Assembly: GCA_963718665.1 (NCBI GenBank)
Contig: OY970359.1
Coordinates: forward strand, 399,514-463,513
Length of the DNA: 64,000 nt
Origin: an uncultured Phycisphaerales bacterium
Lineage (GTDB): Bacteria; Planctomycetota; Phycisphaerae; Sedimentisphaerales; Anaerobacaceae
Reading direction: 5' to 3'
Made by a program: the position numbers and the translations under genes. Below, piece after piece: positions 42,841-54,770 of this stretch. The first letter of the stretch is position 1. Every line of letters begins with the position of its first letter. A model generated the notes under the pieces. The model did no database searches and was not told the origin of the DNA. It worked only from the letters and a program-made list of their open reading frames with translations.

Positions 42841-43130
42841 TGTTTTATTCTCCTTATTTTAATTTGCTTAAATTACCCCCGCGGCTTCGCTTTTGCTCGC
42901 CTCTGCGTCTCTCGAGGTAAGTCGAGGCAGCAGGCGAAGCAAAACGGCGGGGGCGATATTTGCCTTACTTCATGGTTTTTCGCACGCTCACCGACCGGCC
43001 AGCCCGACGCTTGCGGTTTATCATCTTCCTGCCTTTACTCGTCCGCATCCGCACTAAAAATCCGCTCTTGCACTCCTCTTAATCTTACTCTTGCGATGAT
43101 TTTCCACGCCTTGTCTCCTTCATTCCTTTA

Positions 43131-43160
43131 GTATTTAGCCCTGGGTTTCACCCAGGGTTT
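43131..43160. repeat. REP-like hairpin (ccctgggt-ttc-acccaggg) downstream of the RAYT gene
   Basis: 8-bp perfect stem, preceded by gtatttag. Same style as the units at 43739-43995. Confidence 0.55.
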
Positions 43161-43274
43161 CGGTTACTTTCAATCATCGTGGAATTATACACCAATCCCC
43201 TTTAAATGAAAAGGCAATCCTTCCAAAAACTGATACCCCAACGACGTTTACTTGCCGCCCCTGCAATCTGCGTT

Positions 43275-43718
43275 TCAATGCCCCTCAACGTATTCTATTC
43301 TGTTTTTCAATGACTTTTCATCGAAACAGAACTTCGTATTATATCCATTTGTCCACACCCTCCCCTTAAACCCGTTTTTCTGCAGCGCGACTCGCCCCGC
43401 GTTCTTGTAATAACCCACAATAACCCCTATTGGAACATCAACATACTCACACACGATATGAACGTGATTCGAGAACACCCTTGCCGCGAGAATCTTTTGC
43501 TTGAATCTCTTCGCCGCTTCCGTAATCGCCTCCCTTACAATCTCTTTGTCTTTCCGCCCCAATCGCTCCGGCTCATGCTCCAATTTCTTTTCGCAATCTT
43601 TTTTAATTGCGATGTTCTCTCCGCGAACCTCTCCATCTTTGACGTATCCCTTTTTCTCCCCCTGTAACCACGTCCCGTATATCGTCCACGTCACCATATA
43701 TCCGATTGTCTTCGCCAT
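43275..43718 (-). mobile_element. IS200/Y1 HUH-type transposase-like protein, probably a REP-associated tyrosine transposase (RAYT)
   Basis: 147 aa. HUH motif in FSNHVHIVCEY. Size and C-terminal RIEYVEGH are consistent with the Y1_Tnp family. Flanked on both sides by REP-like hairpins. Confidence 0.6.
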
Positions 43719-43738
43719 ACGCAGATTTTATCCCAATA

Positions 43739-43995
43739 CCACTGGCTTTGCCAGTGGCGTATATAGCCCCCGGCTATGCCGGGGGGTGCAAACGCGAGGT
43801 CCGCTTTTACCCCACTATCTCACCGGGGTTTGCCCAATGAACGTCCGCTTCGGGCGTTTGTATATAGCCCCGGTCTCCGGCCGGGGTTGCAATCGCGAGG
43901 AATGCTTAACCCTTTATCCGCCGTAGGCGAATTGCTTATGTGAGGTCAACTTAAACCCTTTTTGAACGCCCGCTTCGGGCGTTTGTATAGCAAGG
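43739..43995. repeat. Cluster of REP-like units
   Basis: gtatatagcccccggctatgccggggggtgcaaacgcgagg (43759-43799) versus gtatatagccccggtctccggccggggttgcaatcgcgagg (43860-43900). Also gtccgcttcgggcgtttgtata (43844-) versus gcccgcttcgggcgtttgtata (43968-). Confidence 0.75.
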
Positions 43996-44011
43996 AACCT
44001 GCCATATAGTA

Positions 44012-44422
44012 TTAATAAAACGTAATTTCTAATCCAAGCCCCAAACTGCCCGCCAATTGAATAAATTCCGGCGGGAAGTAATACCATTTAACGGGAAACT
44101 CGTCACGGTCCTCGCGAGCAACGCCAAAATCCAAGGTTACATCTTCAACACCCGGATAAGCCAGAAGAGTAGATATTTGTTCTGAATTTTCTTTATCTTC
44201 CAGAAAAACTACTGCGTCCTGAATCTGCTGTTTTAAATCTTCGAATCTAGCGTCACTGACACAAATATTAAATCCGGAATGATCTATCTTAGGACCATCT
44301 GGTTTATTTTTATACCTTGGCTCTCCCAGGCGATGAAGACCGGATACTTGGCAGGGATGCTCCTTAAGATAAGCATCTACATTCAACTTTTTACCGCCTA
44401 CTCTAAGATAACATGACGACAT
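44012..44422 (-). CDS. Small hypothetical protein (possibly DUF4279-like), AT-richer than its surroundings
   Basis: ATG at 44422 (MSSCYLRVGGKKLNVDAYL...). Ends ...LGLGLEITFY. The family assignment is only an impression. Confidence 0.45.
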   Translation of the reverse strand: MSSCYLRVGGKKLNVDAYLKEHPCQVSGLHRLGEPRYKNKPDGPKIDHSGFNICVSDARFEDLKQQIQDAVVFLEDKENSEQISTLLAYPGVEDVTLDFGVAREDRDEFPVKWYYFPPEFIQLAGSLGLGLEITFY

Positions 44423-44451
44423 TGATAACCTCACAAAGCATCTTCCGCCCG

Positions 44452-44489
44452 GCAAAGTTGACAGGCAAAGGTGTTATTCTCTTCCGGCC
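44452..44489 (-). promoter_or_regulatory. Copy 1 of a conserved 38-nt upstream motif (candidate ECF-type promoter/operator)
   Basis: 34/38 identical to 53470-53507. The minus strand reads ggccGGAAGagaataacacctttgcctGTCAACtttgc, about 30 nt upstream of the ATG at 44422. Confidence 0.45.
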
Positions 44490-44696
44490 ATAAGTTGGCA
44501 GTATACCGCTAAACTGGTCAGAAAAGCAAGAGTTTTAAGAATCCGCATCCCAAAATTTTACCCGCCCGCCATAAGGCGTCACTTGCGGGAGTAGTTTTAA
44601 CGCAGGCGGGCCGCAATCCCAAATAAAAAATATGTTCAAGTGATTCGTTTTAGTGCTTTGAATTTGTTTCGGATTTAGGGTTTAGGATTTCGGGTT

Positions 44697-45209
44697 TTAA
44701 GTGTCTGCCTCTTCGGTCGAACCACTAACCGTCTTTTCCTGTCTCGGCATCGCTATCGTCCCCGTCCGCGCGACGTTCTTTATCCCGTATGGCCGGCACA
44801 TCTCGATAAACGCCTCGATTTTCTCCTCAGGCCCGCTTATCTCCACCATTATCGTCTTCTGTCCAATATCAACAACGTTGCCCTTGAAGGTCTCTATCAA
44901 CGCCAGTATCTCAGGCCTCTTTTCCGCAGGCGCAGCGAAAGTTATCAGCATCAAATCTCTCGCGACCACCGTCTGGCCCGCAAAATCCTGGACCTTCACA
45001 ACGGGTATTATCTTGGCAAGCTGTTTACGGACCTGCTCAAGCACCCTGTCATCGCCAATCACGACAATCGTCATCCGGCTAAGTTGCGGGTCCTCCGTCC
45101 GCCCGACGACTAACGAATCGATATTGAACGCCCTCGCCGCGAACATCCCCGAAACATGTGCCAAAACTCCCGGCTTATTCTCAACCAACGCGCTTATTAT
45201 ATGTTTCAT
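44697..45209 (-). CDS. ilvN: Acetolactate synthase small (regulatory) subunit
   Basis: MKHIISALVENKPGVLAHVSGMFAARAFNIDSLVVGRTED ACT domain; 170 aa. Confidence 0.93.
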   Translation of the reverse strand: MKHIISALVENKPGVLAHVSGMFAARAFNIDSLVVGRTEDPQLSRMTIVVIGDDRVLEQVRKQLAKIIPVVKVQDFAGQTVVARDLMLITFAAPAEKRPEILALIETFKGNVVDIGQKTIMVEISGPEEKIEAFIEMCRPYGIKNVARTGTIAMPRQEKTVSGSTEEADT

Positions 45210-49180: not shown

Positions 49181-49193
49181 CGACTAACGACTA
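49181..49193. repeat. Left copy of a 13-bp direct repeat, cgactaacgacta
   Basis: Identical 13-mer at 49953-49965. With flanks, about 20/23 match. Overlaps the HNH-AP2 stop codon. Confidence 0.6.
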
Positions 49194-49784
49194 TCGACTG
49201 TCCGCTGTTTCTGGAAAATTTAACCTCGCAAATTCCCCGTGATATTTCTTCGCTGCTTTGTCGCGTGCTTTTGCCGCTTCTATCTCGTTTTTGAATCCGC
49301 CTATCCAGTAACTTTTCCCCTTATGCTTGATTTTAACAGCCCAGCGATTTTGTGCTTTCTCGTAAGATACCCCGATAAACCGCGATGTTGTCTTCGATTT
49401 GGTCTTTCGTTTGTTGCTCGAATTTTGTGCATGCGTCGCAAGACGCAGATTGTCCCTTCGATTATCTAACGACTCTCCGTTTTTGTGGTCAACAATTCGC
49501 CCCTTGGGTGCCCTCATAATCTCTCTGTGCAAATATACTGTTTTGGCTCCTCCCTTTTTGCTCCTGATGCCCCCTATGGCGTATGCTCTCCTTTCGTGAC
49601 CGCCTAAGCACCACTTGATATGTCCAAAGCGGTAATAATCCGCCGGCTCAACTGTCGTCCATTCCCCCTCGCCTAAATATATCCTGCGAAACTCATACCC
49701 ATATTTGTGCCTTCGATACAACATTACCGGCCAGGTGCAGATACGGTCTAACCAATTAGGTATCGTTACGTTAATCATTGTCAT
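49191..49784 (-). CDS. HNH endonuclease fused to an AP2/ERF-type DNA-binding domain (homing-endonuclease-like)
   Basis: YLHREIMRAPKGRIVDHKNGESLDNRRDNLRLATHAQN (HNH_3 pattern), then RFIGVSYEKAQNRWAVKIKHKGKSYWIGGFKNEIEAAKARDKAAKKYHGEFARLNFPE (AP2). Confidence 0.8.
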   Translation of the reverse strand: MTMINVTIPNWLDRICTWPVMLYRRHKYGYEFRRIYLGEGEWTTVEPADYYRFGHIKWCLGGHERRAYAIGGIRSKKGGAKTVYLHREIMRAPKGRIVDHKNGESLDNRRDNLRLATHAQNSSNKRKTKSKTTSRFIGVSYEKAQNRWAVKIKHKGKSYWIGGFKNEIEAAKARDKAAKKYHGEFARLNFPETADSR

Positions 49785-50594: not shown

Positions 50595-51878
50595 TTACTG
50601 AGAGCGATCTTGGCTATCTTTAATTTTTGGCCAATGGCAATCTTTAAACTTTTTGCCACTGCCACAAGGACAAGGTTCATAAATTGAGACTTCTCTTTTT
50701 CTTACGACAAAATCCGCTTCTGAATCATCTAATGGAACTTGAGATGTATCTTTGGATATTTGAGAATTAACAAGATTCTTCATTCTTTCTACAAGTTTGG
50801 CTTCATCATCGCTTGATTTAGGTTCTATCCGCTTCCCACCAGGCTCCCAATGAGGAAAAAAACGTTTCCATAACTGGAAAGTAATAGATTTTCCATTCGC
50901 AGGAGGTCCAAAGCCATATTGTGCTCCCCATACATCTTTTCTATGCTCTCCTAGTTTGCCCCACTCATACGACAGATTCTTCAAGTCTGCCTTTAAATCC
51001 TCCCCGGCGACAAATGTTTGGTCGGAATTTAGGAATGTTCCAGCAATAGACTTATGAAAATTGTCGTTAGAAACAAAAACCATGCAAAATGGCAAATAAT
51101 AAATGTACTCTAAATCAATTTTATTAGTCGGCCTCGTTCCAATAAAGTTGCAAATCAATCCAAAGTAGAATAATACGAGGGCGTTAAAGCAGTAATATGC
51201 ATAGGGTGAGAAGTCTTTAATCAACTTATATTCGCCGCGTTCCCACCTAATAAAAACACGCTGAGCCATTGGAAAATCGATACCAAATTCCTCTATTAAC
51301 CAGACCAAAAGATTCGTTTGATTATTTTCCTGTGACAAGAATTTGTTTACATATTGGTGCAATTGTTCAACACTATCAAATTGTTTCAATACTTTAATTT
51401 TTTGTTTGGCCGTATTTTTAAAAAGTTCCAAGTCTAAAGACCTTGTCGATTCCCGCCATTGCTCAGAAAGAATGTTTTCCGCTTCTGTGAAATTGCCAGA
51501 TTTCCATTCATTAAGTGTTTTTTCTTCTGGCGAAACGTCAAATATTATCCCCTTCTTGCCAGAATCACCTTCCACAGGGACACCACCACCTATATAAGGA
51601 CGTCTTCTCATTTCCACCGGATACCCTAAAAGCGAATTTATAATCAGATATCTGTAATGTACGCTAATCGCTGAATCGAATGGCAGTATTTTGTTTACCA
51701 TACGCATTATTTGATCTTTGGAGACGGCTCCTTGCCTTGTTGGTTTTTTTAGGTCTCCAAGTATTTCTATGAGAAGGATCGGCGTTATATTTATAAAATA
51801 TAGTTTATTCAGAATAAATACCTCATCAAAAGAAAGTGACTGTAGTGCCGATTTGTCTAATATGATTGTTGGCCCCAT
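50595..51878 (-). CDS. Hypothetical protein C of the AT-rich operon: possible split PIN-like N-domain plus a C-terminal SEC-C zinc motif
   Basis: ATG at 51878 (alternative TTG at 51899). TIILDKSALQSLSFDEVFILNKLYFINITPILLIEILGDL and later MVFVSNDNFH resemble PIN acidic blocks. C-terminal CPCGSGKKFKDCHW. Confidence 0.5.
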   Translation of the reverse strand: MGPTIILDKSALQSLSFDEVFILNKLYFINITPILLIEILGDLKKPTRQGAVSKDQIMRMVNKILPFDSAISVHYRYLIINSLLGYPVEMRRRPYIGGGVPVEGDSGKKGIIFDVSPEEKTLNEWKSGNFTEAENILSEQWRESTRSLDLELFKNTAKQKIKVLKQFDSVEQLHQYVNKFLSQENNQTNLLVWLIEEFGIDFPMAQRVFIRWERGEYKLIKDFSPYAYYCFNALVLFYFGLICNFIGTRPTNKIDLEYIYYLPFCMVFVSNDNFHKSIAGTFLNSDQTFVAGEDLKADLKNLSYEWGKLGEHRKDVWGAQYGFGPPANGKSITFQLWKRFFPHWEPGGKRIEPKSSDDEAKLVERMKNLVNSQISKDTSQVPLDDSEADFVVRKREVSIYEPCPCGSGKKFKDCHWPKIKDSQDRSQ

Positions 51879-51985
51879 TATTACCCTATTTATTACCAAA
51901 TAATATGTGGCTGTTCCTATTTAATTAATCCGCAAAAATCCTATCGCGAGCTGTTCAATTAAAGAATCTTCAGAATATTCAGTAA

Positions 51986-52898
51986 TTACTCGCCATCTAA
52001 ACTATCTTGTGATAAGCATACAAAATTATCTAGTGACAATCTCATATGTTCTGAGATTATAATTTCGACGTGTCTTCTTTCAAAAAAGTCTTTGCCAAAA
52101 CAACACTCTTTTAATTTTTTACCGCTTCCGCAGGGGCAATCTTCATCGGCACCAGTGTCCTCAGCTATCTTGATTCTACGGGTGCTTTCCTCAGTACGAG
52201 AAATTCGTAATGGATTACACTTTTTAACAAACACTAAATCTTTAAGATACTCAACACCAGTAAAAGGTATCGACTTATTATTAATGGCCATCATCTTGCA
52301 TCTTTTGTCTGCTGGATTTTCTACCAAAGACACGCTGAGAAGATTCTTGATTTCCTTGACAATACCGTAGGCTAATTTCCCCCTATAAAGCTCCCCTGCT
52401 ATATGCTCGCACTCTAAGCTTTCCATATTCCTACCACAGATGCTGCAATCTACTCTACTCACAACAGCTTCAATGCTGGAAAAAACCTTGTAAGGATAAA
52501 GTTTTTCTAATGCCTGTGCTTGCCTTTCCAAAAATTTGAATAAAGAAGTTCTATCAAAATGCGAAAATCTTTTGAGCAAGCGGAGAGAATCCAAAACATC
52601 TTGTAGCGTATCCCACGATCCAGGATAAGAGCCAGCACAGATTTGGGACCAGTATTGGGCGTAGCAATTTAACAGAGAAGCAAACCTGTCGAAGATAAAG
52701 CAATCATTATAAAATTCGTCCGGACGATTATTGGTTCCGGATTTCTCGTAATCATTTACTAGGGCACAAGTTTTTCTGCGACTTGTTTGGCGGATTCAAA
52801 ATTTAAATTCGCCAACTCATTATAGTAGGACTCAAGGGTTCCTCGGCAATCAAGCCAATATTGTTGCAGACTCTCTGTTTTGAGCAAGATATTATCCA
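51986..52898 (-). CDS. Hypothetical protein B of the AT-rich operon: Cys/His cluster plus SEC-C zinc motif, frame broken once
   Basis: The ATG at 52898 overlaps the stop of protein A (ATGGATAA). My translation gives MDNILLKTESLQQYWLDCRGTLESYYNELANLNFESAKQVAEK, then the frame shifts at the T5/A5 run 52771-52775 into ...CALVNDYEKSGTNNRPDEFYNDCF...LDSLRLLK (track ORF 51986..52594). CSICGRNMESLECEH and CPCGSGKKLKECC. Confidence 0.55.
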
Positions 52899-53365
52899 TT
52901 TATGAAATCATTAATATCAAACTGTTTGATTTTTTTTAGCCCTTCGACAGGACCGTTATATTCGAATTTCTTAAACTTGCCTTTGTCTTTATAAATAACG
53001 TTTAGATGAGCCTTAGGGTCATCTTTTGAAAGGTCGCCTCGCACCATAGATTTAAGGTAGTCATAGACAAAGTTAAGAAAAAGCGGTAACGCAACGTTTG
53101 TCGCCAAGAAAACCATGGGAAGCCATATCTCGGACGATTTTAAATCGATTACGTTCTCACATGAACTGATTTTAACGCTTATTTCTGACTTGTTCTGTCT
53201 GAGCCATTTAGCGAATCTATAAGTATCTGGCTTTAGGACTTCATGACCTTTTCTAAAATTATCTTCTGCAGAAAGAAAGATACCATTAGAATTTTCGATG
53301 AATTCTTTGCATTCTTTGGCAGGTTCAATTTCTGCTAAGGTAAAAAGCTTTTTTTCGTTTTCCAT
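52892..53365 (-). CDS. Hypothetical protein A of the AT-rich operon: small single-pass membrane protein
   Basis: 157 aa. AAGGA lies 9 nt upstream of the ATG. One hydrophobic helix, IWLPMVFLATNVALPLFLNFVY. No family recognised. Confidence 0.55.
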   Translation of the reverse strand: MENEKKLFTLAEIEPAKECKEFIENSNGIFLSAEDNFRKGHEVLKPDTYRFAKWLRQNKSEISVKISSCENVIDLKSSEIWLPMVFLATNVALPLFLNFVYDYLKSMVRGDLSKDDPKAHLNVIYKDKGKFKKFEYNGPVEGLKKIKQFDINDFING

Positions 53366-53469
53366 AGGTTCGTTCCTTATATTTCAATTTCCCCGCTTAT
53401 CAGTTTCGGCAAAAGCAAAATCATATTTCAGACGAACCTAACTATCTGTAAACAGCGTTTTCCAGAACA

Positions 53470-53507
53470 GCAAAGTTGACGGGCAAAGGTGCGAATCTCT
53501 TCCGGCC
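53470..53507 (-). promoter_or_regulatory. Copy 2 of the conserved 38-nt upstream motif
   Basis: The minus strand reads ggccGGAAGagattcgcacctttgcccGTCAACtttgc, about 105 nt upstream of the protein A start. 34/38 identical to 44452-44489. Confidence 0.45.
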
Positions 53508-53642
53508 TTAAAAAAACGTTTTCACCAAACCCACTATAGATTTTCATAAACGAGGTATCAAATTAAAATCCATCCCTTTGGGATACCGCATTTTTACTTT
53601 TTACCTTTTACTTTTTGCCTTGAACAACCTACCCGCTACACG

Positions 53643-54770
53643 CTATCCGCTATTCTTAAGATGCTTTGCTATCCTGCTCGCGCTTGGCGCTTTTATCACT
53701 CCTCTTTCGGTGATAATCGCCGTGATGTTCTCCGCAGGCGTTACATCAAACGCAGGATTGTAAATATCAACGCCATCGGGCACTATCTTTTTAGTGCCCG
53801 TCTTGAGCGAAGTCGAAGGGCTGACTCCACCTATAAACCGAATCTCCTCCGATGGCCGCTGCTCGATAGGAATATCTTTACCTGTCTTTGTTTTCAAATC
53901 GAACGTGCTCGATGGCGCAGCGATATAAAACGGTATTTTGTGCGCTTTAGCAAGAACGCTCAGGGCATAAGTACCAGTTTTATTGGCTGCGTCGCCATTG
54001 GCGGCGATTCTGTCTGCCCCGGTGATGACCATATCTATTTTGCCATCCCTCATAAGCGCAGCAGCCATATTATCGCAGATGACCGTCGTATCGATTTTGG
54101 CCCGTTTCAATTCCCAGGCGGTCAATCGCGAACCCTGTAACAAAGGCCTTGTCTCATCGACAAAAACCGTGAATTTTTTGCCTCGTTTTTTCGCTTCATA
54201 CAAAACCGATAAGGCCGTGCCCTGCCCTGCTGTCGCCAATGCCCCCGCGTTGCAATGCGTCAATATCCCTGCTCCACTTTTTATGAATCTGGCGCCGTTA
54301 GCGCCGATTTTGCGGCACATCTCGATATCTTCCCGGCAAATATCATTGGCCTCTTTCAAAACCGCTTTGCAAAGCTCATCCAACGTCCCTGCCGAACTTT
54401 TTTCAGCGCATTTTACTATTCTTTCAAGTGCCCATCGCAGGTTGACAGCCGTGGGCCTGCTGCTCGCCAAGTATTCGCAATCCCGTTTCAATAACTTCAC
54501 CGCCAAGTTCGCAGAGTTTATTTTATCTTTTTCTCTGCGGTCTTTGCGAGCTCGGCGGTAAATATTTTTCTGTAATGCCAAAACCGCCCCATATCCCCCT
54601 GCTACCCCGATTGCCGCGCATCCCCGAACCGCCAATGTCTTTATCGCGCCATATAACTGCTTAACGCCTACACAGCGAATTATTTTATATTCCCCCGGCA
54701 GTTTCCTCTGGTTGATAATCTCCAGACAGCCATCGACCCCGCCAATCCATTTAAGCGTCTTTACCACCAT
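53643..54770 (-). CDS. mtnA: S-methyl-5-thioribose-1-phosphate isomerase (eIF-2B alpha/beta/delta family)
   Basis: LAVRGCAAIGVAGGYG, SSRPTAVNL, THCNAGALAT, ETRPLLQGSRLTAWEL, GADRIAANGDAANKTGTY, NPAFDVTP. Confidence 0.9.
   Translation of the reverse strand: MVVKTLKWIGGVDGCLEIINQRKLPGEYKIIRCVGVKQLYGAIKTLAVRGCAAIGVAGGYGAVLALQKNIYRRARKDRREKDKINSANLAVKLLKRDCEYLASSRPTAVNLRWALERIVKCAEKSSAGTLDELCKAVLKEANDICREDIEMCRKIGANGARFIKSGAGILTHCNAGALATAGQGTALSVLYEAKKRGKKFTVFVDETRPLLQGSRLTAWELKRAKIDTTVICDNMAAALMRDGKIDMVITGADRIAANGDAANKTGTYALSVLAKAHKIPFYIAAPSSTFDLKTKTGKDIPIEQRPSEEIRFIGGVSPSTSLKTGTKKIVPDGVDIYNPAFDVTPAENITAIITERGVIKAPSASRIAKHLKNSG

Follow-up and report, generated by a model that had tools for sequence, protein, structure and literature searches.

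A motif of 38 nt, present twice in the window (the whole stretch of 64,000 nucleotides analysed here), is the 5', better-kept part of a box of about 50 bases (46-55 nt) that recurs in this genome and in related ones. Our data support a real, orientation-locked element lying before separately acquired AT-rich cassettes. The box is a sequence motif rather than a fold, is selected at fixed positions and keeps one orientation. It is probably a cis-regulatory site shared by these cassettes, used at the level of either DNA or RNA. As a tentative and more specific reading we propose that it is a DNA operator for one trans-acting protein, through which the acquired cassettes would be co-regulated; the binding, the action on DNA and the direction of regulation are what we infer.

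Sequence and anatomy of the box

The two copies (Table 1) agree at 34 of 38 positions in a minus-strand alignment (4 mismatches), and the regions beside them are unrelated and gave no alignment. A degenerate form of the motif, allowing up to 3 mismatches, matched these two minus-strand sites and nothing else in the window, and gave no match in 100 dinucleotide-preserving shuffles. This agrees with the earlier note on this DNA, which had reported the 34/38 identity between unrelated flanks and had placed both copies on the minus strand before AT-rich ORFs: 52892-53365, on the minus strand with a GC content of 0.35, faces copy 1, and 44012-44422, with a GC content of about 0.42, follows copy 2. 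The GCAAAG...GGCAAAG repeat that had been pointed out on the plus strand of the motif is likewise present.

Table 1. Features of the two box loci in the window and positions of the box in the genome
Feature	Coordinates	Strand	Remarks
38-nt motif, copy 1	53470..53507	-	model match at window 53458-53504, genome 452971-453017, E 3.8e-13
Promoter-like TTGATA-N17-TATAGT (class B)	53533..53561	-	from scan, 10/12 consensus matches
Terminator-like hairpin	53571..53585	-	closes the gene upstream (53643-54770), immediately ahead of the promoter
Cargo of copy 1, three AT-rich ORFs	50595..53365	-	157/202/434 aa, GC 0.35-0.38
HNH_3 + AP2 endonuclease-like gene	49191..49784	-	far end of the AT-rich stretch
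38-nt motif, copy 2	44452..44489	-	model match at window 44437-44486, genome 443950-443999, E 2.7e-13
Promoter-like TTGCTT-N18-TATACT (class A)	44500..44529	-	-10 ends 10 nt before the motif
Cargo of copy 2, 136-aa ORF	44012..44422	-	GC about 0.42, no family match
IS200-like Y1 transposase (RAYT-like) gene	43275..43718	-	behind the cargo of copy 2
Box copies in the genome (starts)	443950, 452971, 897550	-	genome coordinates
Box copies in the genome (starts)	1626484, 1705184, 1796256, 22903, 25313, 545136	+	genome coordinates

The aligned copies give the consensus AGAGA-N5-ACCTT-N-G-N-CCGTCAAC, followed by one variable base, TTGCC-N4-GGCA and usually GACGTCTT. Some of these columns were fixed by construction in the pattern search; in the copies found by the model alone C-ACCTTTG-N-CCGTCAAC-N-TTGCC...GGCA is still kept, and the G/A-rich AGAGA block is less strict in copies found without the pattern. 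Variation is met at the N5 stretch (with C as its last base), at two single positions and at the middle 4 nt of the inverted repeat, with the intervening blocks preserved across 47-75 distinct loci from many genera. Variation at such fixed places argues for selection, and not for recent copying alone. Within the box are three TTTGCC-like hexamers, two of them direct and 13 bp apart and one inverted (TTGCC-N4-GGCA), preceded by the AGAGA block. Hexamer repeats of this direct and inverted kind are typical of protein-DNA sites, and the box thus carries the repeated half-sites expected of a transcription-factor operator.

Of the six best copies in this genome, four have a degenerate inverted-repeat half, which makes the 38-mer the persistent part of the box and means that a dimer site in that half cannot be essential. 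Half-boxes, running from AGAGA to CCGTCA and ending there, exist elsewhere. The truncated copies end near CCGTCA and then pass into unrelated sequences (a convergent gene end, a deletion or an insertion), and on this ground site-specific recombination at a fixed crossover was rejected. One half-box, which has a -10-like TACAAT of its own (TATAGT in one locus), is directed into the 3' end of a convergent gene. Three genomes from two genera have this arrangement at an orthologous site, and by eye the gene end resembles that of a superoxide dismutase gene.

A structured RNA at the box is unsupported, there being no consensus fold, no covariation and no Rfam match. A cmscan of four loci at E <= 1 gave no match at the box, with two chance-level hits elsewhere in the loci, and RNAalifold returned an energy of 0 and 0 pairs for 47 sequences. 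The inverted repeat of the box paired no better than shuffles (79.4% of cells versus 80.1%), and for a second candidate helix the values were 80.9% and 81.0%. Three candidate folds, namely a TTGCC-N4-GGCA hairpin, a CGTC/GACG helix in extended form and a palindrome of the downstream module, were dropped, none of them exceeding the pairing seen in shuffles. No terminator-like site was called at the box in four scanned loci; a T6 run is present at a few copies, e.g. the one at genome 1705184.

Copies, cargo and neighbouring genes

The genome holding the window is a single contig of 2.61 Mb with 49% G+C. Allowing up to 3 mismatches, a genome-wide pattern search added two close copies of the motif to those in the window (the reversed-pattern control gave 0), and a looser scan brought in two copies with an insertion. 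A sequence-only covariance model of the box, built from 47 distinct copies and used with a threshold of E <= 1e-5, located 9 copies, three weaker ones included (Table 1). All nine, like every other copy examined, are non-coding; in eight a co-directional ORF starts within about 160 nt on the 3' side, and the ninth has a mini-ORF only. A Shine-Dalgarno sequence and start codon follow within 260 nt of the box in 51 of 75 distinct loci.

In a species-level genome collection the exact pattern AGAGA-N5-ACCTT-N-G-N-CCGTCAAC was found in 20 stretches, 19 of them from MAGs labelled Sedimentisphaerales, Phycisphaerae/Phycisphaerales, Planctomycetes or Pirellulales; the one Pseudomonas match looks like chance. 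Metagenome contigs yielded 47 stretches, four of which were taken as chance and set aside. Viral contigs gave no match to the exact pattern, and a viral origin of the box was rejected for that reason. With the box model, matches were obtained in 25 of the 151 genomes sampled from the same family and in 20 of 91 genera (Sedimentisphaerales/Phycisphaerae MAGs), with a maximum of 14 matches in one genome.

These searches through the genome and its relatives had been proposed in the earlier note, together with the caution that a motif present in many copies irrespective of gene orientation would be just another REP. The genome is indeed rich in short intergenic word repeats and has RAYT genes, but the box has only nine copies, stands in no fixed relation to the RAYT genes and precedes a co-directional ORF start in eight of the nine. 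Copy number and orientation thus contradict the idea of an ordinary REP-type intergenic repeat, as do the want of a stable hairpin and the conservation across genera with fixed variable positions, and we consider it extremely improbable. Among the word repeats seen near the box is CCTTCGAC...GCTCAGGACAGG, which lies between promoter and box or directly after a truncated box (four loci, and genome 1796290).

The first ORFs behind 44 distinct copies are unrelated to one another, with a mean column identity of 6% in the 44-protein alignment, and are mostly of low G+C content (0.32-0.51). What the loci have in common is therefore the upstream box, not the product. Pfam families in the cargo include DUF4365, Hypoth_Ymh, DUF2321, DUF2513, DUF6602, DUF6119, DUF2971, Bro-N, HNH and GIY-YIG, of which DUF4365, Hypoth_Ymh, DUF2321, DUF6602, HNH and Bro-N are among the 25 most frequent; a histidine kinase, a trypsin-like protease and beta-helix proteins also occur. 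Candidate-defence models of PADLOC (PDC-S13, PDC-S04, PDC-M41A, PD-Lambda-3_B, HamA, PtuB and NucC-like) match a minority, so that "defence-like" is true of part of the cargo and not of all of it. The cassettes in the window gave weak family matches only; a SEC-C motif was found in two of the three ORFs behind copy 1, with no confident family.

A start region, AAGGAAATAAGT-ATG-GTn-nnC-CCn-GAT-TCC, encoding MVxPDS..., recurs in five loci and one further. In some loci it opens a full gene (DUF4365-HNH) and elsewhere a 12-aa mini-ORF before the real gene; it also stands alone in the ilvN-ilvC gap of a sister species.

Copy 2 lies in the ilvN-ilvC gap of this genome, which is 1.6 kb long (window 43120-44729), is species-specific and holds the box, the 136-aa ORF and the RAYT-like gene. 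In two sister species the gap is filled with other DNA: one has 4.5 kb of other genes there, and in the second the gap measures about 2.4 kb. The relative that has copy 1 in common is alike over only about 150 bp, and synteny of the copy 1 locus with the sister-species locus was rejected for this reason. Neighbour clustering found only HNH_3-AP2 genes, RAYT-like genes and syntenic housekeeping genes as recurrent neighbours of the box, and no recurrent regulator gene. HNH_3-AP2 genes lie 2-3 kb downstream of the box on the same strand in 4 loci here and about 7 elsewhere, and RAYT genes lie downstream in 3 loci. There are about 27 HNH_3-AP2 endonuclease-like genes in the 2.6 Mb genome (besides the one in the window, e.g. 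at genome 29321, 895424 and 1629333). HNH-AP2 was nevertheless rejected as a direct partner of the box, since most box loci lack it and the majority of HNH-AP2 genes are without a box. Two further observations concern these genes: most of 24 scored have AT-rich DNA (GC roughly 0.35-0.45; genome 0.49) on the same strand within the preceding 1-3 kb, and about 7 loci in other genomes repeat the order box-cargo-HNH-AP2.

Such neighbours raise the question of a recombination anchor or a scar of mobile units, with no regulatory role, in which the box would be kept by gene conversion and would offer homology for cargo swaps in islands ending in HNH-AP2 or RAYT genes. The different DNA in the ilvN-ilvC gap of three species of the genus would suit this, as would the half-boxes, the HNH_3-AP2 and RAYT genes downstream and the many combinations in which upstream promoter classes, box, downstream modules and cargo are met. 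Mere homology, however, would not require that variation be confined to fixed positions across genera; moreover, the truncated copies have no common breakpoint sequence, the neighbourhood of the box showed neither an integrase nor an array or a second flanking copy, and most of the 27 HNH-AP2 genes have no box nearby. We regard this explanation as unlikely.

Promoter-like sites and possible modes of action

All promoter calls given here are consensus matches only. A sigma-70-type promoter-like module stands before almost every copy of the box, in several classes. Class A (TTGCTT-N18-TATACT) precedes copy 2 and most copies in this genome; at copy 2 the consensus scan missed it because the -35 matches at only 3 of 6 bases. 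Class B (TTGACA/TTGATA-N17-TATAGT) precedes copy 1, with the form TTGACA-N17-TATAGT in relatives, and in a third class TAAAAT ends three bases before AGAGA. The -10 of the class B site ends 25 nt before copy 1, so that in the predicted transcript the motif would span about +20 to +57. Class A is also found ahead of three AT-rich genes without a box, 30-50 nt before their start codons; promoter and box are hence separable modules, and class A behaves as a working promoter with its own leader start. These box-less sites, with a TTAAGGCCGGAAG-like start, are at genome 572642, 573638 and 728776, outside the window. Between the predicted start and the box there is, depending on the locus, nothing, a GCCG-GAAA-CGGC hairpin or long unrelated hairpins, so that between 6 and about 75 nt separate the -10 from the box.

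Downstream of the box a few recurrent modules can be told apart, which are common to loci whose cargo differs. Many loci have a second promoter-like module that begins exactly 8 nt after the box (GGCA). In one class this is TATAAA/TATAGT, 8 nt after GGCA, with a Shine-Dalgarno sequence and ATG behind it; the TTTGCC of the box would here serve as a -35 at 16 nt. In another class a full TTGACC-N16-TATAAT begins 8 nt after GGCA, and in two loci the scan tool picks out TTGAAC-N16-TATAAT and TCGACC-N16-TATAAT immediately behind the box. Relative to the core promoter the box keeps 8 nt to the downstream hexamers, though in two different registers, and a variable distance on the upstream side. In four loci and others the TTGACC-N16-TATAAT module has a near-perfect palindrome, TTATACAG-A-CTGTATAA, across its -10, which may act as a second operator; it showed no covariation and was 85.7% paired, versus 85.9% in shuffles.

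These flanking sites bear directly on the reading first given to the motif, a promoter of an alternative (ECF-like) sigma factor; on the box as aligned here, the GGAAG/AGAGA block would serve as -35 and CGTCAAC as -10, with the start in the following TTGCC. CGTC is the usual core of ECF -10 elements and is also the best-kept word of the box; GGAAG stands 17 nt upstream in this genome, and the persistent half-box from AGAGA to CCGTCA is of promoter length. Against this, the -35 is not of the AAC type and varies in relatives, 16-17 nt upstream reading GGAAG, GCAG, GTAG, GGAG (TGGAG), AAAG (TAAAG) or GCGGAG by locus. Conservation extends instead over the would-be spacer (C-ACCTT-N-G) and, beyond the would-be -10, over TTGCC-N4-GGCA and the first 15 bases that would be transcribed; the box also has sigma-70-type promoters on either side. 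The genome has 18 Sigma70_r2 genes, all of them more than 25 kb away from each of the nine copies, which speaks against an autoregulated sigma factor. The promoter architecture suggested in the earlier note is therefore not borne out, and we judge an ECF-like promoter distinctly improbable; it would have wrongly predicted a stress sigma regulon. Sigma-54 and sigma-28 consensus sequences, compared by eye, were rejected because spacing or -35 is unfit. The companion suggestion that an operator may overlap the motif fits the data better than the promoter did. The proposal that one stress-type regulator governs both cassettes survives in part: common regulation is reasonable, many cassettes having the box.

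The upstream promoters also admit a small RNA gene in many copies, in which promoter and box would yield a transcript of about 60 nt ending at the inverted repeat and a T-rich run, with CACCUUUG as a C/U-rich seed resembling an anti-Shine-Dalgarno sequence. A T-rich run does follow the inverted repeat in many loci, the cargo has a separate promoter-like module, and the half-box directed into the convergent gene in three genomes has a -10-like site of its own. The stem, though, is weak and in this genome degenerate, the terminator scan and the structure tests gave nothing at the box, and the leader runs on into the gene. We think this quite improbable.

More serious is a site in the leader RNA. 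The box would be transcribed at the start of the 5' UTR, be bound single-stranded by a protein or small RNA, and set elongation (as processive antitermination through AT-rich foreign genes), mRNA stability or translation. The box lies downstream of a promoter-like site in sense orientation; its free distance to the promoter (6-75 nt), together with the hairpins tolerated exactly between predicted start and box (GCCG-GAAA-CGGC or long perfect ones), fits a position-independent RNA element, and class A, which drives box-less AT-rich genes too, would supply a working leader start. On the other side stand the failure to find a consensus fold, covariation or a terminator at the box, and the second promoter-like module, from which transcription would bypass it. 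In only 16 of 51 leaders is ACCUU predicted to pair with the Shine-Dalgarno region above controls, no more often than other leader segments do, so that sequestration by the ACCUU block is not supported; a likeness of AUCAC-ACCUUU to the 16S 3' end, noticed by eye, was dropped because the AUCAC part varies between loci. A NusG paralogue is present in nearly all of the 151 sampled family genomes, whether or not they have the box. RfaH-like control of the box by this paralogue was rejected, since it is near-universal and linked to a sugar aminotransferase gene. The second NusG-family gene of this genome, at about 2584547, is directly beside a gene for a DegT/DnrJ-type aminotransferase and is probably an UpxY-like regulator of a polysaccharide locus. 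Taken together, we hold an RNA-level leader site to be possible but doubtful.

Our slight preference is thus for the DNA operator. The box, of about 46-55 bp, would be a portable, promoter-proximal site read as linear sequence by one trans-acting protein. Bound there, the factor would block transcripts from the upstream promoter and would occlude or modulate the downstream one, and dozens of unrelated, horizontally acquired AT-rich cassettes could in this way be switched together. Orientation and the place downstream of a promoter fit an RNA-level site equally well, and the variable upstream distance together with a shift of about 20 bp between the classes of downstream module means that there is no single operator geometry; nor did a candidate regulator come to light among the neighbours of the box. 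A wider scenario, which we put forward as speculation, is a clade-wide regulon in one Sedimentisphaerales family, where a module of promoter, box and second promoter would jointly switch dozens of unrelated acquired defence-type cassettes, and the greatly expanded HNH-AP2 endonuclease genes, which stand at the end of many of the islands, may help to build and exchange them.

If the box is a common control site, it provides a sequence handle by which accessory and candidate defence genes may be found by regulatory signal instead of homology in a poorly known uncultured lineage. It would also offer a tractable case of freshly acquired AT-rich genes wired into one host-controlled switch.

Comparison with known systems

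Our search of the literature on such a box found nothing specific, and the comparison is with systems that resemble it in part. Like REP/BIME elements with their RAYTs, it is a short repeat in intergenic DNA, and copy 2 has a RAYT-like gene next to it; it differs in its low copy number, its fixed orientation towards genes and the lack of a conserved hairpin, the stable imperfect palindrome of those elements not being found. With ECF (RpoE-type) promoters, GGAAC-N16/17-(C)GTC, it shares a CGTC block, a G/A-rich block about 17 nt upstream (in this genome) and a place before accessory genes. A conserved AAC is lacking, however; conservation is seen in the spacer and downstream bases, sigma-70-type promoters lie next to the box, and none of the sigma genes has it.

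The integron platform (Pc and attI with attC cassettes) offers a similar order, a resident promoter and a conserved site followed by exchangeable, unrelated cassettes. The copies of the box are nevertheless single, without cassette arrays or a second site at the cassette end, and neighbour clustering showed no recurrent integrase; the inverted repeat of the box has a 4-bp centre, and the cargo junctions lie further downstream, near the start codon. PMC11065993 describes common upstream regulatory sequences that mark unrelated but functionally linked anti-defence early genes in archaeal viruses. Unrelated genes under a common upstream sequence are a conceptual parallel, but the genes there are viral early genes, whereas the box belongs to bacterial chromosomal cassettes and matched no viral contig. 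Antitermination leaders (ops/RfaH, boxA and the targets of UpxY) are also short, orientation-locked leader elements of acquired operons with a free distance to the promoter; the box sequence, though, is unlike ops or boxA, and the only NusG paralogue does not track the distribution of the box.

In operator regulons such as that of the LexA SOS box, and with the defence-island regulators BrxR/CapW, one short DNA site with half-site repeats co-regulates many unrelated genes, and regulators of the BrxR/CapW type are encoded beside the system that they control. Although no regulator gene accompanies the box cassettes, and the box is longer (about 46 bp) and asymmetric, it resembles these operators in being a short site with half-site repeats placed before many unrelated genes.
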